From IMG/VR virus record IMGVR_UViG_3300023179_004109, positions 1-55,127 of that record: a stretch of 55,127 nucleotides of DNA, one strand, 5' to 3'. The notes beneath the pieces are model-generated. The model did no database searches. It had not been told where the DNA came from and worked only from the letters and a program-made list of their open reading frames with translations. This DNA comes from a virus (Duplodnaviria; Caudoviricetes). Position numbers and translations under genes: made by a program. Positions 35,287 through 55,127 of the stretch are shown here, one piece after another (position 1 is the stretch's first letter; the number at the start of each line of letters is the position of its first letter).

Positions 35287-35297
35287 AACCAATATAA

Positions 35298-38133: not shown

Positions 38134-38135
38134 CA

Positions 38136-38390
38136 ATGCTTAATATATTTAAACAAATAAAACAACTTAAAATGAAAAAAGAAGAATTAGAATTGGAAAG
38201 AGAAAAAATGTTAGAGGTTATAAATAGATTAAATATTGCTAATAAAGAGCAAACTAATTTAATAGGCCAATTACGCACAGAATTAAATGATGCTATTAAT
38301 CGAGTAAGAGAATTAGCTGAGCAACTTAACATGAAAGAAGCACAACAAAAGGCAGCAACACAATTTAATGACAACGATAGAAATTACTAA
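38136..38390 (+). CDS. hypothetical coiled-coil protein
   Basis: 84 aa, heptad pattern. Confidence 0.65.
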   Translation: MLNIFKQIKQLKMKKEELELEREKMLEVINRLNIANKEQTNLIGQLRTELNDAINRVRELAEQLNMKEAQQKAATQFNDNDRNY

Positions 38391-38770: not shown

Positions 38771-39224
38771 TTTACATTCATGGGAAGGATCACCTCAAAT
38801 GGATTATTGCTACATGTGTGAAAAAGAACAATATAAAACAAACGTTATGAACAACAACACCACGGAAACAAGATTAGCCATTTCACAATCGCTAATGCAG
38901 GAATCAGCCCCAGACTATATAGATAGACATCTATTAGCAGCTTTAGTTGAAGTAGCTACTCATCTACCTAAAGATTCTATTACATGCGCAGTAATGGAAG
39001 ATCTAAAGCATAGAGCAGATCGTGGGTTAAAAAAGTATAATACCACATTGGGTGAAAATAATCATCAAAATATGCTACAACATGCATATGAAGAAGCTCT
39101 TGATATGGCTCAATACCTTAAGAAAGAGATCATTACTTTAAATACTATTCAAGACTTAGTTAGTAAACACCCCAATGACACTGAATTAGGAATGCTAATA
39201 CGAAACAAATATGGCAAAGCCTAA
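38757..39224 (+). CDS. hypothetical protein with a possible all-alpha NTP pyrophosphatase (MazG-like) domain
   Basis: RGLKKYNTTL...QHAYEEALDMAQYL contains an EExxD motif. Confidence 0.45.
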   Translation: MAKCNLHSWEGSPQMDYCYMCEKEQYKTNVMNNNTTETRLAISQSLMQESAPDYIDRHLLAALVEVATHLPKDSITCAVMEDLKHRADRGLKKYNTTLGENNHQNMLQHAYEEALDMAQYLKKEIITLNTIQDLVSKHPNDTELGMLIRNKYGKA

Positions 39225-40155: not shown

Positions 40156-40184
40156 ACGTATATATTTATATCAAATATAATATT

Positions 40185-40376
40185 ATGGCAAAGATGCAAT
40201 TAACCTCAGTAAAAATTCCCGAAGATCTATTCGAACAATTCAAAATAGCATGTGTTAGATATAAATTCAGCGTACAAAAATTAACAGAACGCGGTATGTT
40301 TCTATATCTAACAGATGAAGAATGGAGAAAAACAATTCACAATACCCTAGACACACAATTAACAGGAAGTTTATAA
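40185..40376 (+). CDS. ribbon-helix-helix DNA-binding protein
   Basis: LTSVKIPEDLFEQFK strand-helix-helix pattern; 63 aa. Confidence 0.6.
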   Translation: MAKMQLTSVKIPEDLFEQFKIACVRYKFSVQKLTERGMFLYLTDEEWRKTIHNTLDTQLTGSL

Positions 40377-40394
40377 AATCAAAACACGTTACGA

Positions 40395-41885
40395 ATGAAA
40401 GAAGGTTATATTGAGCAATCAAAACGTAAGAAAATCTTACTATTATGTGATGATATTAGAATGACATCTGGTATCTCAACAATGGCGCGCGAAATTGTCA
40501 TTGGAACTGCCCATCGTTTTAATTGGGTGAATGTTGGTGGAGCTATTAACCACCCCGACCAAGGTAAACGCTTTGATATTAATGCTGACACTAGTGCACA
40601 AGCAGGAATACCAGATGCTAGTGTTACTTTGTATCCAATCAATGGATATGGCGACCCATCATTTCTAAAACAAATGATAGCAATAGAAAATCCAGATGCA
40701 TTAATGATGTTTACTGATCCAAGATATTGGATTTGGTTATTTCAAATGGAGCATGAGATAAGGAATAAAATGCCTATTATCTATTTGAATATATGGGATG
40801 ATTTACCTTACCCCATGTATAATAAGCCATACTATGAATCATGTGATACTCTGTTAGCAATCAGTAAACAAACTGAAAATTTAAATAGAGCAGTATTAGG
40901 ACCAGAGCTAGCAGCTGAAAAAGTAATTAAGTATGTTCCTCATGGTATTAATGAAAATATATTCTTCCCTATTACTACTGAACATGTTGAATATTTAGCA
41001 CTACAAGACTTTAAAAAACAATTATATGGAGATAAATCGTACGACTTTACTGTACTATATAATGCGCGTAACATCCGTCGTAAATGCGTTCCTGATTTAA
41101 TGTTAGCTTGGAAGATATTTATTGATGAACTTCCAGAAGCTAAAGCTAAGAAATGCGCTTTAGTACTACATACTCAAATTGCAGATGAAAATGGTACTGA
41201 CTTACAAGCAGTAAAAGATATGTTATTTGGATATGAAGAAAAATATAATATCATATTCGATCAAAATAAGTATCCTGCTAACATAATGAATTTACTCTAC
41301 AATGCTACAGATGTGAATGCATTAATTAGTAGTAATGAAGGTTGGGGATTATCATTAACAGAAGCAATGATGTGTGGTAAACCAATTATCGCTACCGTTA
41401 CAGGTGGAATGCAAGACCAAATGCGTTTTGAGAATGAAAATGGTGAATGGATTAAATTCACTGAAGAATTTGGTTCTAACCATAGAGGTAAATATAAAAA
41501 ATGTGGGATATGGGCATTCCCAGTATTTCCATCTAATTCATCAATTGTAGGTTCAATTCCAACCCCTTATATTTTTGATGATAGAGCAGAACCATTCGAT
41601 ATTGCTGATCAAATTCAAGAGGTATATGCTTTAAAAACAAATCAAGTTGAAGAGTATGGGTCTCATACTAGAGGATTTCAAACATACGAAGAAGTTTGTA
41701 AAGCAGCTAGAGATTGGGTTACATCAGACGAATCAATGCAATCAGCAAGATGGATGGCTAAAAATACAATCGATGGAATTGAAGAAACATTCGCTAACTG
41801 GCAACCACGTCATTCATTTGAATTAATTCAAGTAGAAACTCCAAAACAACCAAAACATTACAATAAATACGTTATAGCAAAATAA
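40395..41885 (+). CDS. GT-B glycosyltransferase (GT4-like)
   Basis: VPHGI, RNIRRK, SSNEGWGLSLTEAMMCGKPII...TGG. Confidence 0.9.
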   Translation: MKEGYIEQSKRKKILLLCDDIRMTSGISTMAREIVIGTAHRFNWVNVGGAINHPDQGKRFDINADTSAQAGIPDASVTLYPINGYGDPSFLKQMIAIENPDALMMFTDPRYWIWLFQMEHEIRNKMPIIYLNIWDDLPYPMYNKPYYESCDTLLAISKQTENLNRAVLGPELAAEKVIKYVPHGINENIFFPITTEHVEYLALQDFKKQLYGDKSYDFTVLYNARNIRRKCVPDLMLAWKIFIDELPEAKAKKCALVLHTQIADENGTDLQAVKDMLFGYEEKYNIIFDQNKYPANIMNLLYNATDVNALISSNEGWGLSLTEAMMCGKPIIATVTGGMQDQMRFENENGEWIKFTEEFGSNHRGKYKKCGIWAFPVFPSNSSIVGSIPTPYIFDDRAEPFDIADQIQEVYALKTNQVEEYGSHTRGFQTYEEVCKAARDWVTSDESMQSARWMAKNTIDGIEETFANWQPRHSFELIQVETPKQPKHYNKYVIAK

Positions 41886-41886
41886 T

Positions 41887-43197
41887 ATGAAACAACTAAT
41901 ATTCATAAGTTGTCCTATAGACACTTACAGTGGTTACGGTGCTCGTAGTAGAGATATCGTAAAAGCGCTTTTAAAACCAAATAAATACGATATAAAAATT
42001 ATATCACAACGATGGGGTAATACACCATTCGGGTTTTTAAAAGCAGATAATGCTGAAGACAAACAAATTTTAGATTGTATTTGGGATCAACCCCAACTAC
42101 CTAGACAGCCTGATATTTGGATTCAAATTACAGTTCCAAATGAATTCCAACCCGCAGGAAAATACAATATTGGTATTACAGCTGGTATTGAAACGACATT
42201 ATGTGATGCTACTTGGGTTGAGGGTGTAAATAGAATGAATTTAACATTAGTATCATCTGAACATGCTAAAAGAGTATTTGAACAATCTGCATTCGAACAG
42301 CGTGATACTGCTACTCAACAAGTAGTCAAACATATTAGGCTAGAAAAACCAGTTGAAGTATTATTTGAAGGAGTAGATACTAAAATATATGAAAAAATAG
42401 ATGCAGTAAATGAAAGTCAAGTATGGGATATAGTAGATACTATTCAAGAAGATTTTAATTTCCTATATGTTGGACACTGGCTTCAGGGCGAATTAGGACA
42501 GGATAGAAAAGATACAGGTATGTTAGTTAAAACATTTCTTGAAACATTTAAAGGCAAAGGTAAAAAACCAGGATTGATTATGAAAACTTCTACGGCTACC
42601 TATTCTATAATGGACCGAGATGAAATATTAGATAAAATTCAAAAGTTAAGGCTATTAGTAGGTGATCAAGATTTACCAAATATCTATTTACTACATGGTG
42701 GATTAACAGATGGAGAAATAAATGAATTATATAATCATCCTAAAGTAAAAGCACACGTGTCATTTACTAAAGGTGAAGGATATGGCAGACCACTACTTGA
42801 AGCCTCCATCAGTCAAAAACCTGTAATTGCTTCTAATTGGAGTGGACAAATCGATTTCCTAGATAAAGATATGTCTGTATTATTAGCAGGTGAAGTAAGA
42901 CAAATTCACCCATCAGCAACAGTAGCAAATATGTTAATTCCAGAAAGTGGATGGTTTACTGTTGATTATGAGAAAGCAGCTGGTATATTAATAGATGTTT
43001 ATAAAAATCATAAAAAATACCTTGATGGGGCAAAGAGACAAGCGTATCGTTCACGTACAGAATTTAGTTTAGATAAAATGACTGAAAAATTAAATTCAAT
43101 AATTGATGAAAAAGTACCAAAACAAGTAGCACTTAAATTGCCTCAGCTTAAGAAAATCGAATTACCTAAATTTAAAAAAGTAGACGATGCAAAATAA
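41887..43197 (+). CDS. GT-B glycosyltransferase (GT4-like)
   Basis: SGYG, DRKD, TKGEGYGRPLLEA...PVIASNWSG. Confidence 0.9.
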   Translation: MKQLIFISCPIDTYSGYGARSRDIVKALLKPNKYDIKIISQRWGNTPFGFLKADNAEDKQILDCIWDQPQLPRQPDIWIQITVPNEFQPAGKYNIGITAGIETTLCDATWVEGVNRMNLTLVSSEHAKRVFEQSAFEQRDTATQQVVKHIRLEKPVEVLFEGVDTKIYEKIDAVNESQVWDIVDTIQEDFNFLYVGHWLQGELGQDRKDTGMLVKTFLETFKGKGKKPGLIMKTSTATYSIMDRDEILDKIQKLRLLVGDQDLPNIYLLHGGLTDGEINELYNHPKVKAHVSFTKGEGYGRPLLEASISQKPVIASNWSGQIDFLDKDMSVLLAGEVRQIHPSATVANMLIPESGWFTVDYEKAAGILIDVYKNHKKYLDGAKRQAYRSRTEFSLDKMTEKLNSIIDEKVPKQVALKLPQLKKIELPKFKKVDDAK

Positions 43198-43241
43198 TAC
43201 AGGTGCTGTAATTTATACTTACCAAAATAATACATTAAATT

Positions 43242-43634
43242 ATGAAAGAATTACTTACAATATGTCCTAGATGTGGTTCGAACGCATGTAGTGAAGTATC
43301 AAATAATAAATTAACTGTATGGAATTGCTTTGGATGTGGATTTACATCTAACTCTACCCTTACAGAAAAAAATATAGAATCAACAGAAGAAGTATTACCC
43401 GAACTATATAAAGCACTTAAATTTAAAAGTACAGACGAATTATATTGGTATCCTATGTCTGTAATACTAGAAAATAAAGCAATGGTATTTGCAGAAGGTA
43501 AAACAATTGAAGATTGGAAATGGTCAGCTGTACAATCTAAAGAAGATAAACCTGATATGTCTACTAAAAAAGAATTTGCAGAACGTGAGTTTATGGATGC
43601 GTTAGAATATATTGGTTACTTTAATCAAAAATAA
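43242..43634 (+). CDS. Zn-ribbon hypothetical protein
   Basis: CPRC ... CFGCG. Confidence 0.7.
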   Translation: MKELLTICPRCGSNACSEVSNNKLTVWNCFGCGFTSNSTLTEKNIESTEEVLPELYKALKFKSTDELYWYPMSVILENKAMVFAEGKTIEDWKWSAVQSKEDKPDMSTKKEFAEREFMDALEYIGYFNQK

Positions 43635-43636
43635 AT

Positions 43637-44263
43637 ATGCCTACAATTAGTTATGCAATTACAGCATGTAACGAACATGTTGAATTAGAACGTCTATTAA
43701 ATCAATTAAATGAAAGTATTCGTCTTGAAGATGAAATAGTAGTTCAATTAGATATAACAGCTACTGCTGAAGTTAAAGCTGTAGCTGAAAAATATAATGT
43801 AGGAGCTCCATATGAGTACCACAGAATACAAGCTACATTAAATAACGATTTCGCATCATTTAAAAATAATCTTAGCGAACATTGCACACGCGACTACATC
43901 TTTCAAATAGATGCTGATGAATATCCACACCCAGAATTAATCGAAAATTTACCTGCTCTTCTTGAACATAATCCCGAAATTGATGTATTTCTAGTTCCTA
44001 GAATCAATACAGTAGAAGGATTAACTGAATCCCATATTAAACAATGGGGGTGGAATGTACAAAATAACAGAGTTAATTTTCCAGACTATCAATGGAGAAT
44101 ATGGATAAATAAGAAAAATATTAAATGGATAAATAAAGTCCATGAACGATTAGATGGTTTTGGATTATATTGTAATTTACCCTTATTAGATGAATTATGC
44201 CTATACCATCCAAAAGATATAATTAGACAAGAAAAACAAAATCAATATTATAATACATTATGA
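43637..44263 (+). CDS. GT-A glycosyltransferase (GT2-like)
   Basis: ISYAITACNE, DxD motif FQIDADE, PDYQWR, VHE. Confidence 0.88.
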   Translation: MPTISYAITACNEHVELERLLNQLNESIRLEDEIVVQLDITATAEVKAVAEKYNVGAPYEYHRIQATLNNDFASFKNNLSEHCTRDYIFQIDADEYPHPELIENLPALLEHNPEIDVFLVPRINTVEGLTESHIKQWGWNVQNNRVNFPDYQWRIWINKKNIKWINKVHERLDGFGLYCNLPLLDELCLYHPKDIIRQEKQNQYYNTL

Positions 44264-44664
44264 GTAACAGAAAATACCTCCCAACACTAAGTGAATTAGT
44301 TGACCGTTTAAGTATAGCTCAACTAAAAGAAGTATTCATCGCTGAACATAAAGATGAATATGCTACAGAAATAGCTGATATAGTTCATGATATTCAACTA
44401 TACCTAAAAGAAAGTAAAGAACCTATTACAGCAGAAACAATTAGAGCAATTATAGTATTATCTCAAATGAATTTACATATTTGGCATAACGAGTCAAACT
44501 ATCGTAAAGGAATTAAAGATGGTAACAACTTAGAATTAACCCACGGATTAAATGGCATTCGCAATACAGCTAAAAATAAAATCCAGGAAGTAATGGGTGG
44601 TAGAAAAGATTATAAAATAGATTGTTTAGCTGCTGATTTTAAAGATTGGGAAATAAGCTGGTAA
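44260..44664 (+). CDS. hypothetical helical protein associated with the glycan cluster
   Basis: ELVDRLSI..LK, N..IWH.E, N..R...KNKI pattern. Confidence 0.65.
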   Translation: MSNRKYLPTLSELVDRLSIAQLKEVFIAEHKDEYATEIADIVHDIQLYLKESKEPITAETIRAIIVLSQMNLHIWHNESNYRKGIKDGNNLELTHGLNGIRNTAKNKIQEVMGGRKDYKIDCLAADFKDWEISW

Positions 44665-44668
44665 AATA

Positions 44669-44971
44669 ATGGAAAAAAAATTAACTATATACGTTGACAT
44701 AGATAATACTATCTGTGAAACTAATGAAAGCGACTATATTAATTCAAAACCAATATTTACTAATATAGAAAAAATTAATAAATTATATGATGAAGGACAT
44801 ACAATAATATATTGGACTGCTAGAGGAGCTGCATCTAAAATAGACCATACTGATTTAACATCAAGTCAACTTAAAGAATGGGGATGCTTATTTCATCAAT
44901 TAAAAATGAATAGTAAACCTTCTTACGATTTATTAATATGTGATAAAACTAAAAGAATAGAGGAAATATGA
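44669..44971 (+). CDS. small HAD-family phosphatase (capsule-biosynthesis type)
   Basis: VDIDNTI, WTARG, KP.YDLLICDK. Confidence 0.8.
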   Translation: MEKKLTIYVDIDNTICETNESDYINSKPIFTNIEKINKLYDEGHTIIYWTARGAASKIDHTDLTSSQLKEWGCLFHQLKMNSKPSYDLLICDKTKRIEEI

Positions 44972-45369
44972 AAAAAATATGGGTAAATGGCTCATTTGAC
45001 GTTTTACATATAGGGCATATCAGATTACTTGAATACGCTAGTACACTAGGAAGTGTTAAAGTAGGAATTGATAGTGATAAAAGAATTAAAAAATTTAAAG
45101 GCCCAAATAGACCATTTAATTCACTTGATGATAGAGCAGAATTTTTACGCTCTATAAAGTACATTGATAGTGTTGATGTATTTGATACAACTGAACGATT
45201 AGTTGATCTTATTAAACAATATCAACCTGATTATATGGTTATAGGAAGTGATTATAAAGATAGACCAATCGTTGGTTCTAAATTTATAAAAGAAATTATA
45301 TATTTTAATCGAATAGAAAATAAATCAACAACTAATATATTAAATTATGGAAAAACCAATAGTTTGTGA
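44968..45369 (+). CDS. cytidylyl/adenylyltransferase (RfaE/TagD-like)
   Basis: GSFDVLHIGH, KG..RP, GSDY, STT. Confidence 0.88.
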   Translation: MKKIWVNGSFDVLHIGHIRLLEYASTLGSVKVGIDSDKRIKKFKGPNRPFNSLDDRAEFLRSIKYIDSVDVFDTTERLVDLIKQYQPDYMVIGSDYKDRPIVGSKFIKEIIYFNRIENKSTTNILNYGKTNSL

Positions 45370-45718
45370 GGGTTGTAAAGTACCTAAAGGATGGGGTGAA
45401 GAATTAATCATTGAAAATAATGATAAATACTGCGGCAAACTACTCATATTCAAAGCAGGCTGCAAATTCAGTATGCATTACCATATGATCAAAGATGAAA
45501 CATGGTATGTAGATAAAGGTACATTCCTATATAGATGGATTGATACAGAAACAGCTGAAGTACATGAGGAACACCTTAAATCAGGGGATATTGTAAGACA
45601 AAGACCAGGTCAACCACATCAGTTGGAAGCCATAGAAGAAGGCGTTATATTTGAAGTATCAACAACACATTCAGATTCTGATTCATACCGTGTATGGAAA
45701 GGAGATTCACAAAAATAG
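45347..45718 (+). CDS. cupin-fold sugar isomerase-like protein
   Basis: KGWGEE, SMHYH..KDETW, PH, EVST. Confidence 0.8.
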   Translation: MEKPIVCEGCKVPKGWGEELIIENNDKYCGKLLIFKAGCKFSMHYHMIKDETWYVDKGTFLYRWIDTETAEVHEEHLKSGDIVRQRPGQPHQLEAIEEGVIFEVSTTHSDSDSYRVWKGDSQK

Positions 45719-45720
45719 CT

Positions 45721-47079
45721 ATGCAAGAACTATATCAAGATTTAGAAGGTTATAATAATGTCACTGAAAAAGAAATATTAAAATTAGTAGATAGATACAT
45801 CCAACAAAAACACTCTGAAAAAACTTGGGAAGCAGGTAAAGATTGGGTTCAATATGCAGGACCATATTTTGATTCATCAGAATATATAGCTGCTGTTAAA
45901 TCATTATTAGGTGAGTGGTTAGTACTAGGTGCTGATGCAATTAAATTTGAATCTAAATTTCCTAAACTATTTGGTAAAAAATATGGTTTATTAACCAATA
46001 GTGGTTCAAGTGCTAATCTATTAATGATGGCGGCTATGACCTCTAAACGCGGCTATAATATGCCTAAAGGGACGAAAGTAATTACTCCAATAGCTGGTTT
46101 CCCAACTACGGTAGCTCCAATTATCCAATTAGGATTCGTCCCTATATTCGTTGATATCGAGCTTGAAACATTAAACCTCGATTTAAATCAAGTTGAACAA
46201 GCTTGTATTGATAATCCTGATGCTAAAATTATTACATTTGCTCACGTATTAGGTAATCCACCTAACATGAATCGCTTAATGGAAATAGTTGAAAAATATA
46301 AATTAATACTATTAGAAGACTGTTGTGATGCTTTAGGTTCTACATTTGAAGGTAAGCCACTAGGTTCATTTGGTGAAATGGCTAGCTGCTCATTCTACCC
46401 AGCACACCACATTACAATGGGTGAAGGTGGATTTGTAGCAATGAATAATCAAAATACTGAACGTATTGTTCGTAGCTTTAGAGAATGGGGTAGAGGATGT
46501 TATTGCGTTGGTAAACAAAACTTATTAGAAAACGGAACATGCAAATGTCGCTTCAGTAACTGGTTACCTTCCTTACCAAATGAAATATTTGATCACAAAT
46601 ATGTCTATGAGGAGATTGGATATAATATGAAACCAATTGAATTACAAGCATCCATTGGTTTAGTTCAAATGGAAAAATTAGAAGAAATAGGTATTAAAAG
46701 AAAAGAAAACTATAAAGACCTATTTCAATCCTTTAGTAAATACAGTCAATATTTTCATTTACATAAAGCACAATCTGGGGCTGATGTTGATTGGTTTGCT
46801 TTCCCTATAACAATTAAGGATGGAGCTCCATTTAAGCGTTCTGATATATGTCAATTTTTTGAAGCACATAAAATACAAACACGCCCTTACTTTGCAGGCA
46901 ATATTATGTTACAACCAGCTTATACACATTTAGCTGATTCTAAAGAGGTAATTGAACAATATCCTGTAGCAAGAAAAGTAACTACAGATACATTCTTCTT
47001 AGGTACTTCACCTGTAATCAATAAGGAAAAAACTGATTATATTCAAACAATATTAGATAAATTTATTTTACAACTATGA
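45721..47079 (+). CDS. rfbH: NDP-4-keto-6-deoxyglucose 3-dehydratase (E1, RfbH/DdhC)
   Basis: NSGSSANL, EDCCDALG, SFYPAHHITMGEGG (His at the usual PLP-Lys site), WGRGCYC...C.CRF Fe-S loop, DHKY. ATG 45721 preferred over 45694. Confidence 0.88.
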   Translation: MQELYQDLEGYNNVTEKEILKLVDRYIQQKHSEKTWEAGKDWVQYAGPYFDSSEYIAAVKSLLGEWLVLGADAIKFESKFPKLFGKKYGLLTNSGSSANLLMMAAMTSKRGYNMPKGTKVITPIAGFPTTVAPIIQLGFVPIFVDIELETLNLDLNQVEQACIDNPDAKIITFAHVLGNPPNMNRLMEIVEKYKLILLEDCCDALGSTFEGKPLGSFGEMASCSFYPAHHITMGEGGFVAMNNQNTERIVRSFREWGRGCYCVGKQNLLENGTCKCRFSNWLPSLPNEIFDHKYVYEEIGYNMKPIELQASIGLVQMEKLEEIGIKRKENYKDLFQSFSKYSQYFHLHKAQSGADVDWFAFPITIKDGAPFKRSDICQFFEAHKIQTRPYFAGNIMLQPAYTHLADSKEVIEQYPVARKVTTDTFFLGTSPVINKEKTDYIQTILDKFILQL

Positions 47080-48023
47080 AAGTAGTATACATAACGGGAT
47101 GTTTAGGATTTATAGGTTCACATGTTACTAGACTTTGTTTAGATCAAGGTTGGTATGTAAGAGGTGTTGATAAATGTACTTACGCCGCCAATATAAATTT
47201 ATTACAACAGTTTCAGGAATGTAATAATTTTAAATTTGAAAATAAAGATATTAATGATTTAAAATTTCTATACGATTGTGATTATGTTATTAATACAGCT
47301 GCTGAAACGCACGTTGGTAATTCAATAGCTAATAGTGATGATTTTGTTAGTTCTAATATTAATGGAGTTCATCATTTATTAGAATTACTTAGAAACTATA
47401 GACAAGAAACAGCTAAAACACCTACATTATTACACTTCAGTACAGATGAAGTTTATGGAGATATAGGTGATGGAGCTCATACTGAAACTGACCTACTTAA
47501 ACCATCAAACCCATATTCAGCAACTAAAGCAGCTGCGGATATGTTAGTATTAGCTTGGGCTAGAACGTATAATTTATCTTATGTTATTGTTAGACCAACT
47601 AACAATTATGGAGTAGGACAATACGTTGAGAAATTAATCCCTAAAGCATGCAAATATCTCCAGTTAAATAGAAAAATACCTCTGCACAACAGCGGAACTC
47701 CAATTAGAAACTGGCTACATGCTCATGATACAGCTAGAGCTATTATTAAAATTATTGAAAGCGGAGTGCAAAACGAAATATTCAATATTGCTGGTGGATT
47801 TGAACAATCAAACTACAATACAATAAAGAAATTAATTTATGAATATAACGGCGATACTGAAGTAAATAAGTACATTGATTGGTCTTATTCTAGAGTAGGA
47901 CAGGATATTAGATATGCTTTAGATGATTCTAAATTAAAAGCATTAGGTTGGGAACCTAAAATGGAATTTGATAAAGAATTACCTTACATTGTAAATTATT
48001 ATAAAAATAAATTTATATGGTAA
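47076..48023 (+). CDS. rfbB: dTDP-glucose 4,6-dehydratase-like SDR
   Basis: GCLGFIG, D..TYA, AAETHV, STDEVYG, PSNPYSATK, NNYG, EKLIP. Confidence 0.85.
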   Translation: MKVVYITGCLGFIGSHVTRLCLDQGWYVRGVDKCTYAANINLLQQFQECNNFKFENKDINDLKFLYDCDYVINTAAETHVGNSIANSDDFVSSNINGVHHLLELLRNYRQETAKTPTLLHFSTDEVYGDIGDGAHTETDLLKPSNPYSATKAAADMLVLAWARTYNLSYVIVRPTNNYGVGQYVEKLIPKACKYLQLNRKIPLHNSGTPIRNWLHAHDTARAIIKIIESGVQNEIFNIAGGFEQSNYNTIKKLIYEYNGDTEVNKYIDWSYSRVGQDIRYALDDSKLKALGWEPKMEFDKELPYIVNYYKNKFIW

Positions 48024-48529
48024 GATTAGCTAATGGTCGAGGACAGTTAGGAGAAAAATTACAACAATATTTAAATATTCAATCAGATAAAGATATAGTA
48101 ATATATCATACATGGCAAGTTACATACTCTGGCGACTCAAATATGAGTGAGGAAGTGATACAACTTAACGAATATAATAAATTAGTTGAATTTTCTAAAA
48201 ATAACCCTAACTTTAAAATAATATTTATTTCAACTGCATCACAACGTAGTAGTTGGTATACTTACTATAAAGAACAAGCAGAAGCTTATCTTTTGGCTAA
48301 TCACGATTCTTGCATTATATTAAAATTCCCAACATTTATAGGGAAAGGTATATTACCTAAATTAAAATCAGGTGAAATAAAACCATACGGAACTATAGAA
48401 TTAATTACTCTAGATAGAGTATCTGAAATAGTAGGTCAATATCTATTTTATGATGATTTAAAAAGAGTGTTTATAATAGAAGGAGAAAAAATAGAGGCTA
48501 AAACACTAGTAGAAATATTAAACGTATAA
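48017..48529 (+). CDS. short SDR-like (RmlD/epimerase-like) protein
   Basis: GRGQLG, IFIST, YTYYK (YxxxK); only 170 aa. Confidence 0.6.
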   Translation: MVRLANGRGQLGEKLQQYLNIQSDKDIVIYHTWQVTYSGDSNMSEEVIQLNEYNKLVEFSKNNPNFKIIFISTASQRSSWYTYYKEQAEAYLLANHDSCIILKFPTFIGKGILPKLKSGEIKPYGTIELITLDRVSEIVGQYLFYDDLKRVFIIEGEKIEAKTLVEILNV

Positions 48530-49443
48530 TGGTTATAAAAATAACATATCATTTAATGCCTTGGGAAATTGATTATGCATTGCAATCATTTACTCAATTT
48601 AAAAAATCTAAATATTATCTTGAAAAAGGTGATACTGTTAAAATTGATTCATTCTTAAATCTATCTAGCTATCTTATCGATTGGGATAAAAGTAAATTAC
48701 CAAAAGAGTTCTTTATTCAAAAATATAAGGACCTATCTAACTTGCTAATTGATTATGATCATACTCCGTTCATATATGAAGGAGATGAGTTGTTTGGTAT
48801 TTTAGATAAACAGAGAATGGCCTATTCTTCTGATGTCGATTACTATATTGAATTATGTCCTGACATGTATTTTAGTGAAACCTTACTTGCATCACTAATA
48901 AGTGCAGCTAAAGTAGTACCTAATAAATACTTTGCCATCACTCCACAATTATACAAAATGTGGGACTGGACTTGGGATGTATTAGTAGCTGATAGACATA
49001 TGAATATACCTTATGACCAATGGGATAAAGCAGATTTATTTGATATTAGATGGGATTTTAAAAATGCAAATATAGAAAGACAACTTAAATCATCTCCAGT
49101 AAGTAAATGGTGTAATTGGTTTGATCTATATAATAAAGCATTCTATGAGGAAATGATTCCAGTGCATGATGATTGGCATGGATACGGACCTGGAGATACT
49201 TATGGGATGATAATTTCAGAGCATGCTAAAAAACAGGGTGCTGATTTTCAACAGTATATTTTAGAGGGTGAGCTTATATTTGAATATCCAATTGGCCCCT
49301 TAAAACAACGTAATGTTAGTAGTGTTTATAGAGATATGATTGTAACTAAAAATGTTCCTAACCAAAGAGCAGTATTCGAGGCCAAGTTTAATGATTACCT
49401 TAATATAGGAGTTCAACAACTAATTAATAAAAAAATAATCTAA
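48529..49443 (+). CDS. putative GT-A-fold glycosyltransferase
   Basis: YYIELCPDMYF at a DxD-like position and GYGPGD resembling GT2/GT7 C-terminal motifs; cluster context. Confidence 0.5.
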   Translation: MVIKITYHLMPWEIDYALQSFTQFKKSKYYLEKGDTVKIDSFLNLSSYLIDWDKSKLPKEFFIQKYKDLSNLLIDYDHTPFIYEGDELFGILDKQRMAYSSDVDYYIELCPDMYFSETLLASLISAAKVVPNKYFAITPQLYKMWDWTWDVLVADRHMNIPYDQWDKADLFDIRWDFKNANIERQLKSSPVSKWCNWFDLYNKAFYEEMIPVHDDWHGYGPGDTYGMIISEHAKKQGADFQQYILEGELIFEYPIGPLKQRNVSSVYRDMIVTKNVPNQRAVFEAKFNDYLNIGVQQLINKKII

Positions 49444-50312
49444 TGAATATATTTTCTAATTTTAGACCTGAAAGTAGTTCTGTTTATGATGGGATTAGAT
49501 TATTGGATAAACCAATAACATTCTTCTATGACTTTATACCTCAAAGTATAGAACAACTCAATATTAATCCTTATAATTTCATTATGCTTCATGAGCCAGA
49601 TGAATTTTTCGGAATGCATAGTTGGATCTTGAATAATCATCATTTATTTACAGGTATATTAACTTGGAATAAAGAATTATTAGAAAAATGCCCTAACGCC
49701 ATTTTATTTCATCATGTTGGTGAAGGCGGGTGTGGGATGGAGATTAATAATTATCTAGAAACATTTAATGAAGAATATCCTGATAAATCATTTAATGTTA
49801 GTTTCTTAAGTGGAGCTAAATCATTAGTTGATGGACATAAATTTAGACAAGAAATATATAAAATAGGAGATCAAATTTATATTCCTAAAAAATGGTTCTA
49901 CACATTAGATGATTTTAATGAAGATAATTTTAAAAAGGGAGGTGTTGGTCGTCCTGACAATATATGGCACTCTAAAAAAATATGCTACATCAACACTATG
50001 TTTCATATTGGTGTAGAAAATGTTAATACTAATAATTGGTATACAGAAAAAATAACAGATGCTTTTGCTACTAAAACAGTTCCTGTATATTGGGGTTGTC
50101 CTAATTTAGGAGATTTAGGTTATGATGAAAAAGGTATTTTAAGATTTAACACTATACCTGAACTTATTTCTTTAGTTAATTCATTAACACCTGAAAAGTA
50201 TTATGACATGCTACCACATATAGAATATAACTGTGAAATGGTTAAGCATCATAGAATTAAAGATAAATTAGAGGAGTTTTTTAAAGAAATAATTAAAATT
50301 AACAATTTATAA
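49443..50312 (+). CDS. GT10 (alpha-1,3/4-fucosyltransferase-like) glycosyltransferase
   Basis: FHIGVENVNTNNWYTEKITDAFATKTVPVYWG matches the EN...Y.TEK...P.YWG motif. Confidence 0.8.
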   Translation: MNIFSNFRPESSSVYDGIRLLDKPITFFYDFIPQSIEQLNINPYNFIMLHEPDEFFGMHSWILNNHHLFTGILTWNKELLEKCPNAILFHHVGEGGCGMEINNYLETFNEEYPDKSFNVSFLSGAKSLVDGHKFRQEIYKIGDQIYIPKKWFYTLDDFNEDNFKKGGVGRPDNIWHSKKICYINTMFHIGVENVNTNNWYTEKITDAFATKTVPVYWGCPNLGDLGYDEKGILRFNTIPELISLVNSLTPEKYYDMLPHIEYNCEMVKHHRIKDKLEEFFKEIIKINNL

Positions 50313-50349
50313 TAAACAAGTATATATTTACATCAAATAATAATTAAAC

Positions 50350-51288
50350 ATGAAAACAGTTTTGATAACAGGTGGCGCTGGCTACCTAGGTTCTGTTCTA
50401 ACAGAAGTACTAATCAACAAAGGTTATAAAGTTACAGTCTTAGATAACCTAATCTATAAACAAACATCAGTAGCTCCTTTTGTTTATAATCCTAATTTTA
50501 ATTTTGTTTTAGGAGACGTAACGGACAATGCTGTTCTTAGACCATTAGTGGAATCACATGATGTAATTATCCCGTTAGCTGCTATTGTAGGTATGCCTGC
50601 TTGTAAAGCACAACCTGAACTAACAGTTAAAGTAAACTATTTACAAGTAAAAAATATTACAGAGTGGATTAATAAGAATCAAATGGTATTAATTCCAAAC
50701 ACTAATAGCCAGTATGGTTCATCAACTGAAATCATTACTGAAGATTCTCCATTTAAACCATTATCTCTATATGCTGAAACAAAATGTGATGCTGAGAAAG
50801 TAGTATTAGAATCAGGTAATGGTATTGCCTTGCGCTTAGCAACAGTATTTGGTATGTCATATAGAATGAGAATGGATTTATTAGTAAATGACTTTGTTTA
50901 TAAAGCAGTAACTGATGGTTATTTAGTGTTATTTGAATCTCATTTCATCCGCAATTACATTCATATCAGAGATATCGCTAATACATTCTTATTTATGATT
51001 GAAAATTATGAAAAATGCAATAATAATGCATTTAATGTTGGATTAACATCAGCTAATTGCACAAAACTAGAATTAGCAGAAACAATCCAGAAATACATTC
51101 CAGATTTAGTTATTGTTGAAAATAATTTCAAACAAGACTTCGATCAGAGAAATTATATAGTTTCAAATGCTAAATTAGAATCATTTGGATGGACTCCTCA
51201 ATTCAGTTTAGAAGACGGTATTCAAGAATTAATAAAAGGATATCAATTAATCACTAAATTTAAAAATAAAGACTTTACAAATCTATAA
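50350..51288 (+). CDS. NAD-dependent nucleotide-sugar epimerase/dehydratase/reductase
   Basis: TGGAGYLG, LAAIVG.PAC, YAETK, LRLATVFG, RNYIHIRD. Confidence 0.9.
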   Translation: MKTVLITGGAGYLGSVLTEVLINKGYKVTVLDNLIYKQTSVAPFVYNPNFNFVLGDVTDNAVLRPLVESHDVIIPLAAIVGMPACKAQPELTVKVNYLQVKNITEWINKNQMVLIPNTNSQYGSSTEIITEDSPFKPLSLYAETKCDAEKVVLESGNGIALRLATVFGMSYRMRMDLLVNDFVYKAVTDGYLVLFESHFIRNYIHIRDIANTFLFMIENYEKCNNNAFNVGLTSANCTKLELAETIQKYIPDLVIVENNFKQDFDQRNYIVSNAKLESFGWTPQFSLEDGIQELIKGYQLITKFKNKDFTNL

Positions 51289-52247
51289 TGAAAATATTAG
51301 TAGTATATAACATTTGTGGTTTAAAATTTGATAATTTAGAAATGTGGTCTAACCACCTTAAAGACATTTTAAATCAAGACCACCCTAACTTTACTGTGGC
51401 TGTTTCTGGTTGTATCGTTTCAGACAAAAGTAAAAATGAACTTCAAAAACTTAAAGACAAGTATAGTAATATTTGTTTTAATTGGATAGAAGACTTATTA
51501 CCAGTTAATGCAACATTCAACCACACAGCACAAGTTTGCACTGAACAATTTGGAGAATATGATGGTTATCTTTACGTAGCATCAGATGTTAAATTTGGTA
51601 CTGATGATAAAGTAATAAGCAAATTAGCTTATTTACATGAAAATAGTAACAGTGCTATGACTTATGCTTTAGTAGATAATGACCATGGATTAGATGGTTG
51701 GTATGCTGATTGTTGGAATGAATTAGATAAATTATTAGAAACAGATCATTTTTCAATTAATATAGGCCGTACAGCAAATATGCATGTTATCTTATTTGAT
51801 AAAGAAATATATAAACAATTTAACCACCAAATAATCCCAGACATATTTGCTACTCACTGTACTGAAACAACATACAGTTTCTTAGCAGCGGCTTTAAGTA
51901 AAAAATATATTGTACATAATAAAGATATTATGTTAAAACATATTGGGTTTGCTGATGGTCATAGTGTTGGTTTTATAGGTGAAATTGCATACAATAATAA
52001 CCTTGCTTGGAAACACCTATTTAAATCTAAAATAACAGCTGAAGAGAGATTATTAAATGATGAAGCTAAGGCAAGTGGGTTTGGATACGAAGAACATAAA
52101 GGTCTTTTAATGCACGATGAATCAATGTATGATGATAATGAAAATCACATTGAACCTCAAAAATTACTTGGCTTCCTTAAAAAAGCTATATACCTTTCAG
52201 AGGACGAATTTAACTACAATAATATTAAATATCAATTTACAATATGA
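51288..52247 (+). CDS. putative glycosyltransferase-like protein
   Basis: N.TFN and YLYVASDV at GT-A-like positions; cluster context only. Confidence 0.45.
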   Translation: MKILVVYNICGLKFDNLEMWSNHLKDILNQDHPNFTVAVSGCIVSDKSKNELQKLKDKYSNICFNWIEDLLPVNATFNHTAQVCTEQFGEYDGYLYVASDVKFGTDDKVISKLAYLHENSNSAMTYALVDNDHGLDGWYADCWNELDKLLETDHFSINIGRTANMHVILFDKEIYKQFNHQIIPDIFATHCTETTYSFLAAALSKKYIVHNKDIMLKHIGFADGHSVGFIGEIAYNNNLAWKHLFKSKITAEERLLNDEAKASGFGYEEHKGLLMHDESMYDDNENHIEPQKLLGFLKKAIYLSEDEFNYNNIKYQFTI

Positions 52248-53773
52248 TAGATGTTTTATTTATAACACCAGGTAATGCTAGTGGCATATACCAAAATTTA
52301 GCTAGTAATTATGCAGCAATTGAACCCCCTACCTGGGCATTGCTACTAGCAGAATCATGTCGTTCAATAGGACATAAAGTAAGTCTTATCGATATTAACG
52401 CTGAGCAATTAGAAAATAGTGAAGTAGTGGATAGAATTAAACTATTAAACCCACGCTTAATATGTTTCGTAGTATACGGACAAAATGTAAATTCAGGTAC
52501 TGTAAATATGAGTGGTGCTACTTATACTTCTAATTATATTAAAGAAGTAGGTATTACAATACCAATTGCTTATGTAGGTTCATACGTTCAAGCAGTTCCT
52601 ATTAAAGCACTTAAAGAAGAACCATCAATTGATTTTGCATTTATAAATGAAGGAGTATATGCATTAAGAAACGTATTAGCTCAAGAAATAATTGATATTA
52701 CTAATTTAGATCATATTAAAGGTATTGTTTGGAGAAAAGACGGAATACCTAAAATGAATCCTGCTGAAAAAGTAGTACCAAACGAAAGAATGGATATTGA
52801 TCTTCCAGGGTATGCTTGGGATCTATTACCTAGCAAAGAAAAACCACTTGATTTATACAGAGCACCTATGTGGCATGCTGAATATGATCAAGATAAAAGA
52901 TCACCATACGCAGCAATTCAAACATCTTTAGGATGTCAATTTGGTTGTGAATTCTGTATGATTAACATCATAAACAGAAATGATGACGAAGAAATTGGAG
53001 TTGCTGGTAACTATAGTGCTATGCGTTATTGGTCTCCTGAGTTTATTATTAAAGAATTTGATAAGTTAATTGAATTAGGAGTTTATACTATTAAAATTAC
53101 AGATGAATTATTCTTATTGAATAGAAAATATTATGTTCCACTATGTGAAATGTTAAGAGATAGAGGTTACGGTGATAAACTAAGAATGTGGGCTTATTCA
53201 AGAGTGGATACAGTAAAGCGACCTGAATTACTAGAACTAGTACGTTCAGCTGGTATTAAATGGTTAGCTTTAGGTATTGAAAGTGGAGATAAAAATGTAA
53301 GATTAGAAGTATCTAAAGGTAAATTTGAAGATGTAGATATTGATAAAGTAATAGAACAAGTACATGCTGCTAATATTGAAGTAATGGCTAATTATATTTT
53401 TGGATTACCAGGTGATACTCAAGAAAGTATGCAGAAAACTTTAGAATTGTCAAAAGAATTATGTACATTTGGATGGAATGCATATGCAGCAATGGCACTA
53501 CCAGGAAGTCAGTTATATAAAAATGCTATTATAAATGGTACTCCATTACCAACTACGTATGAAGGTTATTCGTTTCATGGATATGATACATTATCCCTAC
53601 CAACAAATACCTTAACATCCGCTGAAGTACTAGCATTTAGAGATAAAGCGTTTGATGAATATCATTCATATGCTCCATTCCAGGAAAAAGTAAAAGCAAA
53701 ATTTGGACAAGTAGCGGTTGATAATATTAATGAAATGCTTAAAGTTAAATTAAAAAGAAAAATTCTTGAATAA
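52244..53773 (+). CDS. cobalamin-binding radical SAM enzyme (class B methyltransferase-like)
   Basis: N-terminal B12-binding-like domain (PP.W.., DFAFINEG), SLGCQFGCEFC, DELF, LGIESG, IFGLPGDT, PGSQLY. Confidence 0.88.
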   Translation: MIDVLFITPGNASGIYQNLASNYAAIEPPTWALLLAESCRSIGHKVSLIDINAEQLENSEVVDRIKLLNPRLICFVVYGQNVNSGTVNMSGATYTSNYIKEVGITIPIAYVGSYVQAVPIKALKEEPSIDFAFINEGVYALRNVLAQEIIDITNLDHIKGIVWRKDGIPKMNPAEKVVPNERMDIDLPGYAWDLLPSKEKPLDLYRAPMWHAEYDQDKRSPYAAIQTSLGCQFGCEFCMINIINRNDDEEIGVAGNYSAMRYWSPEFIIKEFDKLIELGVYTIKITDELFLLNRKYYVPLCEMLRDRGYGDKLRMWAYSRVDTVKRPELLELVRSAGIKWLALGIESGDKNVRLEVSKGKFEDVDIDKVIEQVHAANIEVMANYIFGLPGDTQESMQKTLELSKELCTFGWNAYAAMALPGSQLYKNAIINGTPLPTTYEGYSFHGYDTLSLPTNTLTSAEVLAFRDKAFDEYHSYAPFQEKVKAKFGQVAVDNINEMLKVKLKRKILE

Positions 53774-54366
53774 TGACAAAAGAACAATTAATTGCTTTTG
53801 AAGATGACATAGCAGAATGTTTCAATAATGCTATGATCAAAGCCCCAGTTCATTTATATTATGGAAATGAAGATCAGATGATTAATATATTTCAAAAAGT
53901 ACAACCTGAAGATTGGGTATTCTGTACTTGGAGATCACATTATCAATGTCTGCTTAAAGGCGTTCCACAAGAACAAATCAAACAAGATATTTTAAGCGGT
54001 AAATCTATTACTCTCTGCTACCCTGAGTATAATATTTACTCTTCAGCTATAGTAACAGGTAATATTCCTATTGCAACAGGCACAGCATTAGATATTAAAC
54101 GTAAAGGCGGTACTAATCACGTATGGTGTTTCGTTGGAGAAATGACTTCAGAAACAGGTACTTTCTTTGAAAATTGGAAATATGCAGTAAATCATGATTT
54201 ACCAATCACATATGTAATTGAAGATAATGGTAAATCTGTTTGTACTGATACTAAAGCAGTTTGGAATAGTGAATTATATTTCGCTAATGAAACTAAAAAA
54301 ATTATCTATTACAAATACGAAACAAAATATCCTCACGCTGGTGCAGGTAAACGAATTCAATTTTAA
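53773..54366 (+). CDS. ThDP-dependent enzyme, E1-alpha-like (short)
   Basis: HL..GNE, WRSH, SAIV, VGEM...EDN variant of the GDG..NN motif. Confidence 0.8.
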   Translation: MTKEQLIAFEDDIAECFNNAMIKAPVHLYYGNEDQMINIFQKVQPEDWVFCTWRSHYQCLLKGVPQEQIKQDILSGKSITLCYPEYNIYSSAIVTGNIPIATGTALDIKRKGGTNHVWCFVGEMTSETGTFFENWKYAVNHDLPITYVIEDNGKSVCTDTKAVWNSELYFANETKKIIYYKYETKYPHAGAGKRIQF

Positions 54367-54369
54367 TAT

Positions 54370-54906
54370 ATGAAATATTTTGATGAGCTAAAACGCTCAA
54401 TGGACTGGCTCAATGAAAAACCAGATACACTATTTTTAGGACAAGCTGTAGAATATGCTGGTACTGCTATGACTAATACACTTAAAGATGTAAATAAGAG
54501 CAAATTACTTGAAATGCCAGTTAATGAAGATATGCAAATGGGTATGACTTTAGGAATGGCATTAAATGGTACTGTACCTATTTCTATTTACCCTAGATGG
54601 AATTTTTTATTACTAGCAGCTAATCAGCTTGTAAATCATTTAGACAAAATTAAAATTATGTCTGATGGTGGGTATAAACCTAGAGTAATTATTAGAACAT
54701 CTATTGGAGCACAACGTCCTCTTCATCCTCAACATCAACATATTGCTGATTTTACGGGTGGATTTAGATCAATGTGTGACTTTGTAGATATAATTAGATT
54801 AGATGAGCCATATCAGATATTTGAATCATTTAAATATGCTTACGAAAGAACAGACAACCGCCCTACTATCTTAGTTGAATGGGGTGATTATTACGGAGAA
54901 AAATAA
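54370..54906 (+). CDS. ThDP-dependent enzyme, E1-beta/transketolase pyrimidine-binding domain only
   Basis: FLGQ, EMPVNE..QMG...GMAL.G, NQLVN, PQHQH; 178 aa. Confidence 0.8.
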   Translation: MKYFDELKRSMDWLNEKPDTLFLGQAVEYAGTAMTNTLKDVNKSKLLEMPVNEDMQMGMTLGMALNGTVPISIYPRWNFLLLAANQLVNHLDKIKIMSDGGYKPRVIIRTSIGAQRPLHPQHQHIADFTGGFRSMCDFVDIIRLDEPYQIFESFKYAYERTDNRPTILVEWGDYYGEK

Positions 54907-54916
54907 AATACAACAT

Positions 54917-55127
54917 ATGAGTAATTTCTATTTACCTTTAATGAGTGATAATATTGACAAACAAGATATTAATTCATTAATTGAATTTTTAAGTCAAGAC
55001 CAAATACCTAAATTAACAAACGGACCTAAAGTGGTTGAATTTGAAAATGCTTGGGGAGAATGGCTAGGTACAAAATATAATTTAATGGTTAACTCTGGAG
55101 CATCAGCAAATGAATTAACTATGCTAG
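54917..55127 (+). CDS. DegT/DnrJ-family PLP sugar aminotransferase/dehydratase (5' part, truncated by the window)
   Basis: LTNGPKVVEFENAWGEWLGTKYNLMVNSGASAN. Confidence 0.8.
   Translation, partial: MSNFYLPLMSDNIDKQDINSLIEFLSQDQIPKLTNGPKVVEFENAWGEWLGTKYNLMVNSGASANELTML

Follow-up and report, generated by a model that had tools for sequence, protein, structure and literature searches.

A phage that carries a long run of sugar-building genes raises the question of which molecule it glycosylates. The distal part of IMG/VR virus record IMGVR_UViG_3300023179_004109 (Duplodnaviria; Caudoviricetes) poses this question, and we analyzed the whole record of 55,127 bp (here called the window; CheckV completeness, 27%). 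The source of the window is, judged by its genes, a distant T4-like myophage, since its DNA polymerase is only 35% identical to the top cultured match, that of Microcystis phage Mel-JY01. From position 40185 to the window end at 55127, 20 open reading frames (ORFs) lie head to tail on the (+) strand with no competing long ORFs, in agreement with an earlier reading of this DNA from its letters (the sequence-only reading), which had described a co-oriented glycan biosynthesis island of ~20 genes. We found that the island is real, phage-borne, and not chimeric, and that it is built from two separable modules, a core of glycosyltransferases (GTs) and a downstream cassette that is exchanged as a block between phages. 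The explanation that we favor, with a rough probability of 45%, is late cytoplasmic glycosylation of phage proteins, probably virion proteins, with a conserved inner and a variable outer glycan.

A phage-borne island of soluble glycan enzymes

Genes were called by Pfam and NCBIfam scans, and scores are given below in bits, with the family cut-off in parentheses after the score. The four clear glycosyltransferases named by the sequence-only reading stand (two GT4, one GT2, and one GT10-like), whereas the two possible extra ones, probably the ORFs g304 and g319, have neither Pfam nor PDB support, and two short-chain dehydrogenases/reductases (SDRs; 47076 to 48023 and 50350 to 51288) were found where three had been claimed. 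The remaining assignments, namely a nucleotidyltransferase, a HAD phosphatase, a cupin, RfbH, a second DegT-family enzyme, a B12 radical SAM enzyme, and a pair of thiamine diphosphate (ThDP) enzymes, are supported by Pfam, NCBIfam, or motif evidence.

The island combines nucleotide-sugar genes with transferases, as Wzx/Wzy- or ABC-type loci do. The proposed absence of any obvious membrane protein was confirmed by a Kyte-Doolittle scan, in which each island protein has at most one hydrophobic segment. This crude hydropathy scan, used here in place of a dedicated predictor and with a polytopic threshold of at least six transmembrane (TM)-like segments, detected no multi-TM ORF that could encode an initiating polyprenyl-phosphate transferase, flippase, polymerase, or ABC exporter, either in the island or in any of 80 related phage loci. 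Nor did relatives carry a flippase, polymerase, or ligase gene (wzx, wzy, or waaL) directly downstream, where such genes would have counted against a cytoplasmic system; an ORF with six or more TM-like segments occurred in 0 of the 80 related phage loci.

A constant core and an exchangeable cassette

The modular architecture of the island emerged from two sets of viral relatives. A profile of GT4a, the first transferase of the island, found relatives on at least 589 viral contigs, the best 80 of which were compared as loci, many of these contigs being cut short. A search with the radical SAM enzyme yielded 99 related viral stretches, of which 80 were kept. Individual loci carry L-numbers below; G001 to G004 are near-complete relatives (G001, 221 kb; G002, complete with terminal repeats, 168,946 bp, and syntenic with the entire window). 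In the phage loci, the left part is constant (exonuclease, g63, GT4a, GT4b, Zn-ribbon protein, and GT2), and the right part is variable. Specifically, the best 80 GT4a loci contain the exonuclease in 77 cases, GT4b in 76, g63 in 70, the Zn-ribbon protein in 57, and GT2 in 54.

The boundary between the two parts is sharp. Locus L181 shares 93.0% DNA identity with window positions 31312 to 44263 (12,963 nt), and this identity ends exactly at the stop codon of GT2 (44263), which marks the left edge of the cassette. Beyond GT2, L181 carries nine ORFs (7.1 kb) that are unlike the window cassette, save for two weak FkbM-like matches, and then a ClpP-like head protease gene. A radical SAM homologue was found in none of five core-bearing records (that of L181 and four others), and G003 and G004, which are near-complete and contain the radical SAM cassette, have no GT4a orthologue. 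It follows that core and cassette are separable and that the latter is exchanged as a block.

The core also occurs in cultured phages. Flavobacterium phage vB_FspM_immuto (immuto) encodes adjacent GT4a and GT4b homologues (57% and 54% identity) in the order PD-(D/E)XK nuclease, small ORF, two GTs, small ORF, and GT2-type enzyme, followed by a different set of sugar genes (aminotransferases, methyltransferases, an epimerase, and more GTs). Microcystis phage Mel-JY01 likewise has adjacent homologues of GT4a and GT4b (42% and 46%) in a similar order; both small ORFs are missing, and an IMP dehydrogenase gene separates the nuclease from the GTs. By these sequence relationships, the core is inherited within a phage lineage that spans hosts of different phyla, and its retention across such hosts argues for an acceptor supplied by the phage. 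Our literature search on virion glycosylation turned up no work on this phage clade, and no paper on Mel-JY01 was found.

The core begins with g63 (40185 to 40376; + strand, like every island gene), a small conserved ORF that has no Pfam or NCBIfam match, is 100% identical in L181, and may, judged by eye, encode a ribbon-helix-helix-like protein. GT4a (40395 to 41885; 496 aa) is a family-4 glycosyltransferase of the GT-B fold (PF00534, 46.4 [26.4]; E-x7-E motif). Its AlphaFold2 (AF2) model (pLDDT, 84.6) retrieved GT4 enzymes in Foldseek, with chlorovirus NY-2A B736L on top (1.1e-13; 15% identity), nearly tied with MshA. The second GT4-like enzyme, GT4b (41887 to 43197; 436 aa), scores just below the cut-off (PF00534, 25.1 [26.4]) with its E-x7-E motif conserved, and its family profile matched the same chlorovirus enzyme (5.7e-5); B736L is the best PDB sequence match for GT4a and the sole one for GT4b. 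An analogy with GtfA/GtfB of serine-rich adhesin glycosylation, suggested by the sizes of GT4a and GT4b, was dropped because the Pfam scan and Foldseek yielded no GtfA-type entries. As a separate observation, the GT4a orthologue of G001 (G001:C1:94005-95414) contains one in-frame TGA.

The core continues with a Zn-ribbon protein (43242 to 43634; 130 aa; weak PF13453 match; CPRC...CFGC) and ends with GT2 (43637 to 44263; 208 aa), a short, soluble, stand-alone GT-A enzyme (PF00535, 44.3 [23.3]; DxD motif). Against the PDB, the GT2 family profile aligned with the full length of GmaR at 1.4e-14, six orders of magnitude ahead of the next entries (chondroitin synthase, 1.2e-8; SunS, 4e-8; then another Glyco_trans_2-like chain). 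GmaR is an O-glycosyltransferase of flagellin, and SunS, an S-glycosyltransferase, modifies a peptide in the cytoplasm. The end-to-end similarity of GT2 to GmaR and the B736L matches of both GT4 enzymes lend modest support to a protein as the acceptor.

Boxes shared with virion genes

The promoter-like box ATATTTAT lies on the (+) strand at 40162 to 40169, 23 nt upstream of the first island ORF, and recurs before the sheath gene and the cluster that follows it; the earlier observation that one box precedes both the island and the tail genes thus holds. The box is not over-represented in the window (18 matches versus 20.0 ± 4.5 expected). Its placement is far from random, with 8 of the 15 (+) strand copies falling within the 4.7% of the window that is intergenic. 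These eight boxes stand 23 to 51 nt ahead of the starts at 446, 2511, 3092, 4138, 6643, 19678, 29898, and 40185, and the genes behind them include the sheath, four more ORFs in the cluster behind the sheath (starts 2511 to 6643), and the first island ORF. A one-mismatch copy, ATATTTAC (50324 to 50331, + strand), is located 26 nt upstream of SDR2, the second of the two SDRs; G002 has an exact box at the same place, 28 nt before SDR2.

The complete relative G002 contains 42 boxes on the (+) strand and 10 on the (−) strand, and 28 of the 42 fall within its 4.2% intergenic share. They precede the genes for the large terminase (TerL), the portal, an adaptor-like protein, a 2621-aa fiber, the sheath, the tube, a virion structural protein, and the head maturation protease, and likewise island genes g63 and SDR2. 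More broadly, 9 of 11 IMG/VR relatives, as well as immuto, have a box upstream of their g63 homologue. In comparison, a scan of the island for sigma-70 promoters and terminators showed no enrichment (93 promoter-like sites versus 108 expected; 3 terminator-like sites versus 5.5). Because the box is common to terminase, portal, fiber, sheath, tube, and head-protease genes, it is reasonable to infer that the island is expressed late, together with the virion genes.

A sugar sub-module shared with bacteria

The radical SAM profile also found 364 bacterial stretches, from which 80 loci (L093 to L172) were kept for ORF comparison. Many of the bacterial loci lie on large contigs labelled Pelagibacteraceae (60 to 67% identity), and others are labelled Verrucomicrobia, Bacteroidota, cyanobacteria, and other phyla (~50 to 55%). 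The radical SAM gene was seen in 76 of the 80, along with SDR2 in 49, the ThDP alpha and beta subunits in 42 and 48, DegT in 53, and an RmlC-like gene in 17. SDR2 and the radical SAM gene are neighbors in 70 of the 80 phage loci and in 49 of the 80 bacterial ones. An ORF with at least six TM-like segments was found in 28 of the 80 bacterial loci versus none of the 80 phage loci. In bacteria, the five-gene set (SDR, B12 radical SAM, ThDP pair, and DegT, often with an RmlC-like gene) frequently stands beside polytopic membrane proteins of 450 to 800 aa. Its product could be assigned to no known sugar or pathway. The set is widespread in SAR11, Verrucomicrobia, and other bacteria and constitutes a lead of its own.

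The remaining island genes gave a different picture. GT4a, GT4b, GT2, the Zn-ribbon protein, g63, g134, the GT10-like enzyme, g304, and g319 have no homologue in the 80 bacterial loci. In addition, no GT4a orthologue was found in 306 bacterial genomes (301 Bacteroidota and 5 cassette carriers), where the profile detected partial, generic GT4 similarity only: its maxima were 61.6 bits over positions 181 to 341 of 479 in the 301 Bacteroidota and 28.8 bits in the five cassette genomes, versus 686 to 829 bits for phage orthologues. By the 80-locus comparison and the GT4a profile scores, the sugar sub-module is therefore common to phages and bacteria, whereas within the genomes searched the transferase core is confined to phages.

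Proposed virion glycosylation and its rivals

Taken together, these modules suggest a division of labor. The phage-specific core (GT4a, GT4b, the Zn-ribbon protein, and the GmaR-like GT2) would put an inner glycan on an acceptor that the phage itself encodes, most likely a virion protein or several of them, and the swappable cassette downstream would supply unusual nucleotide sugars and its own outer transferase or transferases, such as the GT10-like enzyme. The sugar route would run from the phosphatase through the RfaE-II-like nucleotidyltransferase and the 4,6-dehydratase to 3-deoxygenation by RfbH and might then proceed by ThDP-dependent two-carbon branching, radical SAM chemistry, transamination, and reduction. 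Related phages would consequently display different outer glycans on an identical inner glycan. Of the sequence-only reading, which had placed such glycosylation in the cytoplasm on phage proteins or DNA, the soluble enzymes are upheld and late expression is a sensible deduction, whereas the DNA alternative has lost ground. An extended version, which we put forward tentatively, is that virions across this aquatic T4-like clade bear a lipopolysaccharide (LPS)-like glycan with a conserved inner core and an exchanged, hypervariable outer part drawn from cassettes partly shared with bacteria such as SAR11 and Verrucomicrobia, giving rise to phage "serotypes" and containing an undescribed branched amino-deoxy sugar.

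The window contains one candidate acceptor. Behind a ATATTTAT box, positions 29898 to 30701 encode a 267-aa fiber-like protein that is Ser/Thr/Ala-rich (33% Ser plus Thr), with repeats such as SASYAL. Directly after it, 30706 to 31127 would encode five T7-AAPTTS repeats and a C-terminal domain, readable only via a frame change shortly before 30840. In L181 (region 1 to 700), this poly-Thr gene is one intact 230-aa ORF with a differing C-terminal domain, and the frame break in the window may be an assembly error. From its composition, the poly-Thr protein may be a candidate for a mucin-like O-glycan acceptor.

Several observations weigh against virion protein glycosylation. No acceptor protein was identified, and no tract of seven or more Thr codons was found in the four near-complete sugar-cassette relatives, G001 to G004, which rules out the poly-Thr protein as a general conserved acceptor. 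Fold comparison of GT4a points to no particular acceptor type, B736L scoring about the same as MshA, sucrose-phosphate synthase, and others. The evidence for late timing is a shared motif. The sub-module is homologous (50 to 76%) to cassettes in bacterial loci that resemble surface-glycan loci, and soluble transferases can use lipid-linked intermediates of the host. Finally, the core adjoins replication and nuclease genes and contains, besides a Zn-ribbon protein, a small protein that may bind DNA, so a role on nucleic acid would fit it too.

Remodeling of the host envelope is the rival that survives best, and we consider it somewhat unlikely. Here, the phage would build its glycan on host undecaprenyl-linked intermediates, to be exported by the initiating transferase, flippase, and ligase of the host, and the altered LPS or capsule might act, e.g., against superinfection or against progeny sticking to debris. 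As the export machinery of the host could be used, the missing flippase is compatible with lipid-linked host acceptors. The sub-module of SDR2, radical SAM, ThDP pair, DegT, and RmlC-like genes has its 364 bacterial relatives, with polytopic membrane proteins near 28 of 80, and the cassette swaps between near-identical phages resemble O-antigen diversity. Moreover, an effect on the host envelope is the reading given, in the parts of the papers available to us, for glycan clusters of pelagimyophages and large cyanomyophages (PMC7029224, PMC12801897). However, no bacterial orthologue of the core transferases turned up in the 306 genomes searched, and their conservation in phages of Bacteroidota and of Cyanobacteria is unexpected if the acceptors are host-specific. 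The virion-type boxes on the island and the lack of a membrane-associated step in all 80 phage loci speak against this rival as well.

Rather more doubtful is another cytoplasmic target, which could be a nonstructural phage protein, a host protein, or a soluble or lipid glycoconjugate modified for takeover or counter-defense. Soluble enzymes and a phage-specific core suit this idea equally, no conserved virion acceptor emerged among the relatives examined, and the phage-only protein g134, with enzyme-like invariant polar residues and 50 to 95% identity among relatives, could belong to such a system. Yet the hypervariability of the outer cassette suggests that its product is exposed and subject to diversifying selection, and the boxes are those common to virion genes.

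DNA hypermodification, in which the transferases would glycosylate a modified base in T-even fashion, is quite improbable. The core does come after the replication module and a nuclease gene, a base-modification pathway is encoded (DpdA3-like, QueC, QueD, QueE, and FolE), and viral DNA-acting GT-B enzymes appear among the distant structural matches, e.g., a cyanophage "DNA alpha-GT" at rank 49. Against this, immuto has the same core and the same DpdA3-type pathway as the window, and analysis of its DNA by liquid chromatography with UV and tandem mass spectrometric detection (LC-UV-MS/MS) lists, in the portion of the report available, dA, dC, dT, and fdPreQ1 replacing dG, and nothing else (bioRxiv 10.1101/2023.04.13.536721). 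A search for the ThyA family (PF00303), which did not extend to methyltransferase and TET routes, covered five records and found it in G001 only, not in the window (a fragment), G002, G003, or G004. The nucleosides of immuto and the presence of ThyA in one of five records make DNA an unlikely target, and the promoter type is that of virion genes.

Base modification as such is encoded in a 7-deazaguanine module at 23688 to 28743, with QueD/PTPS (23688 to 24152), a QueC-like protein (25269 to 26111), a QueE-like protein (26972 to 27871), and GTP cyclohydrolase I (FolE; 28111 to 28743). A DpdA3-like protein (24121 to 24927) is 35% identical to the annotated DNA guanine transglycosylase of immuto and 34% identical to Campylobacter CP220-group proteins. 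Judging from these genes, the phage probably swaps G in its DNA for a 7-deazaguanine derivative.

An assembly chimera, i.e., a bacterial glycan locus misjoined to a phage contig, as the bacterial homologues of the sugar sub-module might suggest, can be set aside: the listed short Logan contigs that end near 40046 to 40065, with none bridging to 40263, are uninformative, and the exonuclease-g63-GT4a junction recurs in many independent contigs and in cultured phages (12 of 80 radical SAM loci, 70 of 80 GT4a loci, the complete G002, and immuto, with nuclease and GT genes in like order around an IMP dehydrogenase gene in Mel-JY01), base composition being steady across it.

Cassette genes and sugar chemistry

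The first cassette gene, g134 (44260 to 44664), encodes a predicted four-helix protein (AF2 pLDDT, 84.0) that is 50 to 95% identical across 26 relatives, with many invariant polar residues. It is conserved above its neighbors, reaching 84 to 95% in relatives whose other island proteins are ~50 to 80% identical, and occurs in 0 of the 80 bacterial loci. No fold or family could be assigned: Foldseek on the PDB gave nothing at E ≤ 0.001, a VIA-wide search gave only helical-hairpin matches (Z < 8), and an Atlas search returned viral hypothetical clusters only, one of them with 20% DUF6165.

Next come a small HAD-type phosphatase (44669 to 44971; DIDNT motif), for which only weak models were found, including the TIGR01689 capsule-biosynthesis phosphatase at 2.1e-8, below its cut-off, and a sugar-phosphate nucleotidyltransferase of the cytidylyltransferase superfamily (44968 to 45369; PF01467, 61.7), nearest to RfaE/HldE domain II (TIGR02199, 99.4, below cut-off). 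A cupin (45347 to 45718; Cupin_2, 26.8 [27.2]) with a weak match to the C-terminal domain of mannose-6-phosphate isomerase is a candidate sugar isomerase or epimerase. It is followed by an RfbH-type (E1) nucleoside diphosphate (NDP)-4-keto-6-deoxyhexose 3-dehydrase (45694 to 47079; NF011936, 464.3 [423]; PF01041, 255.7) and by SDR1 (47076 to 48023; PF16363, 188.8), which resembles NDP-sugar 4,6-dehydratases and scores best on the dTDP-glucose 4,6-dehydratase model (TIGR01181, 291.6, below the cut-off of 365.1), compared with 73 bits on the CDP-glucose model. The RfbH score places the E1 step of the 3,6-dideoxyhexose pathway in the island. An E3 reductase (RfbI) or RfbF-type nucleotidyltransferase was not found among the 20 island ORFs, four of which are unassigned (g134, g170, g304, and g319), and the island extends beyond the window.

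The ORF g170 (48017 to 48529) has no Pfam or NCBIfam match above cut-off. Its neighbor g304 (48529 to 49443) is always beside the GT10-like gene and had no Pfam or PDB sequence match, either as a single sequence or as a profile; Pfam scans of the individual family members were also empty. The GT10-like, fucosyltransferase-type enzyme itself (49443 to 50312; PF00852, 19.8 [23.9]) matched Helicobacter pylori alpha1,3-fucosyltransferase by family profile at 2.8e-12.

The bacteria-shared sub-module starts with SDR2 (50350 to 51288; PF01370, 124.6), an NDP-sugar epimerase or reductase. The adjacent g319 (51288 to 52247) showed a weak match to UPF0004 (flavodoxin-like) in 10 of 20 family members (best, 9e-4) and no PDB match as a single sequence or profile. 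The B12-binding radical SAM enzyme (52244 to 53773; PF04055, 64.8; PF02310, 36.7) reached no NCBIfam model at cut-off; its top PDB sequence match is AprD4 (6.2e-11), and tblastn against cultured phages found only Streptomyces phage SF3 (23% identity). Two ThDP enzyme genes follow, one for an E1-alpha-like subunit (53773 to 54366; PF00676, 53.7) and one for an E1-beta/transketolase-pyrimidine-domain subunit (54370 to 54906; PF02779, 36.4). The second DegT-family aminotransferase (54875 to 55127; PF01041, 27.3) is cut by the window end; its full-length, 406-aa homologue in L003 scores 249.6.

Past this point, L002 and L003, the closest relatives for that part (85 to 90% identity), contain ~5 kb more of the island, with genes for the full DegT enzyme, an RmlC-like epimerase, a phosphoribosyltransferase, a PNP-like protein, a PfkB-like kinase fragment, and an FkbM methyltransferase, and then a ClpP-like protein that corresponds to the head maturation protease in PHROGs. 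The PfkB kinase, HAD phosphatase, and RfaE-II-like nucleotidyltransferase would, by analogy, follow the same scheme as the ADP-heptose route, namely, kinase, phosphatase, and nucleotidyltransferase.

Other features of the source phage

The window genes lie almost all on the (+) strand and comprise the tail sheath, neighboring virion genes, and a replication set. Replication and metabolism are represented by gp32-like, UvsX-like, and DnaB-like proteins, a 5′-3′ exonuclease, ribonucleotide reductase, and the 7-deazaguanine pathway, along with a family B DNA polymerase, sliding clamp, clamp loader, GroES/GroEL, and a PD-(D/E)XK-type exonuclease. Near-identical sequence occurs in runs labelled lake water or freshwater metagenome: part of it was present in 20 of the 22 runs listed, and at least half of the sampled words in 5.

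Three further observations concern the comparison with G002. At 19935 to 22625, the window encodes small and large ribonucleotide reductase subunits without a blastp match in the otherwise syntenic G002, which has a 616-aa ORF there instead, i.e., another replaced segment. The window ORFs at 9314 to 10876 and 11059 to 12831 (520 and 590 aa, 182 nt apart) both match a single 1211-aa ORF of G002 (93584 to 97219; 54% and 50%) and represent a split or interrupted structural gene or an assembly artifact. Lastly, G002 carries adjacent paralogues of the major head protein at 60985 to 64433 (555 and 568 aa, both phrog_138), a pair that we take to be reminiscent of T4 gp23/gp24.

Comparison with known systems

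Glycan clusters of large aquatic phages have been noted for ~20 years with no demonstrated function, and the literature, as far as its accessible text goes, proposes modification of the host surface or of DNA. The island offers a concrete and testable alternative, with a phage-only core at a fixed genome position, virion-type boxes, and a cassette swapped between near-identical phages. As the core is present in the cultured phages immuto and Mel-JY01, routine biochemical work on virions can test its target directly. Should virions prove to be glycosylated, lakes and seas would contain phage particles whose sugar coats vary, with a bearing on adsorption, decay, grazing, and host range.

A functional parallel is virion glycosylation in mycobacteriophages, reportedly described by Freeman et al. 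in 2023. There, as proposed here, soluble glycosyltransferases encoded by the phage would modify its own structural proteins in the cytoplasm. The island encodes such transferases (GT4a, GT4b, GT2, and the GT10-like enzyme), and, as to its placement, the box is common to virion genes, the head protease lies directly downstream in relatives, and the replication genes lie upstream. In contrast to the mycobacteriophage systems, we describe a predicted system in a T4-like myophage of lake bacteria, a three-enzyme core joined to a sugar cassette of ~11 to 16 kb that includes RfbH, a B12 radical SAM enzyme, and ThDP enzymes, and no S/T-rich C-terminal extension was identified on capsid or tube proteins. 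Autonomous capsid glycosylation in chloroviruses and giant viruses (NY-2A B736L; PDB 3oy2) is similar in combining virus-encoded soluble transferases with nucleotide-sugar enzymes, whereas the host here is bacterial and the similarity between GT4a and B736L is low (15%, by structural alignment), barely above that to cellular GT4 enzymes. GmaR and SunS offer a GT2 parallel, in that the phage GT2 family aligns with the whole GmaR chain (1.4e-14); the phage GT2, however, is a stand-alone protein of 208 aa.

Bacterial O-antigen and capsule loci share with the island the combination of nucleotide-sugar genes and transferases, cassette-type diversity, the chemistry of RfbH and a 4,6-dehydratase, and a homologous SDR/radical SAM/ThDP/DegT sub-module, but the phage loci lack the initiating polyprenyl-phosphate transferase, flippase, polymerase, ABC exporter, and ligase. 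T-even DNA glucosylation likewise employs GT-B enzymes near the replication genes of a T4-like phage; here, in contrast, the window has no hydroxymethylase candidate, the promoter motif is of the virion type, and the DNA of the cultured relative has no glycosylated nucleosides. DNA glycosylation is the subject of separate papers, available to us in part (10.1101/2023.12.21.572611, PMC13326640). The moraphage paper treats four glycosyltransferase orthogroups as core and, in its accessible portion, mentions DNA, host serotype, and the virion as conceivable targets with no test.

A further comparison is with marine T4-like phages. Glycosyltransferases, NDP-sugar epimerases, rfaE-like genes, and radical SAM cassettes have been reported from hypervariable regions of T4-like aquatic phages (P-SSM2, S-SCSM1, S-SCSM2R, and pelagimyophages), their function never having been demonstrated according to the text available (PMC7029224, PMC12801897), and the hypervariable host-recognition cluster of pelagimyophages is described there as including radical SAM cassettes (PMC7029224). 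The present phage follows this pattern, with T4-like replication and tail genes and a cluster of transferases and NDP-sugar enzymes in a region of cassette replacement. It differs from the marine "cell-wall" clusters in that a phage-specific transferase core is fixed between the replication module and the head protease and is followed by a sharply bounded, replaceable cassette, and in that the island carries virion-type boxes. Phage glycan clusters and virion glycosylation in other phages were thus already known; what the island adds is its core-plus-cassette modularity, its breadth, and its exotic sugar chemistry.

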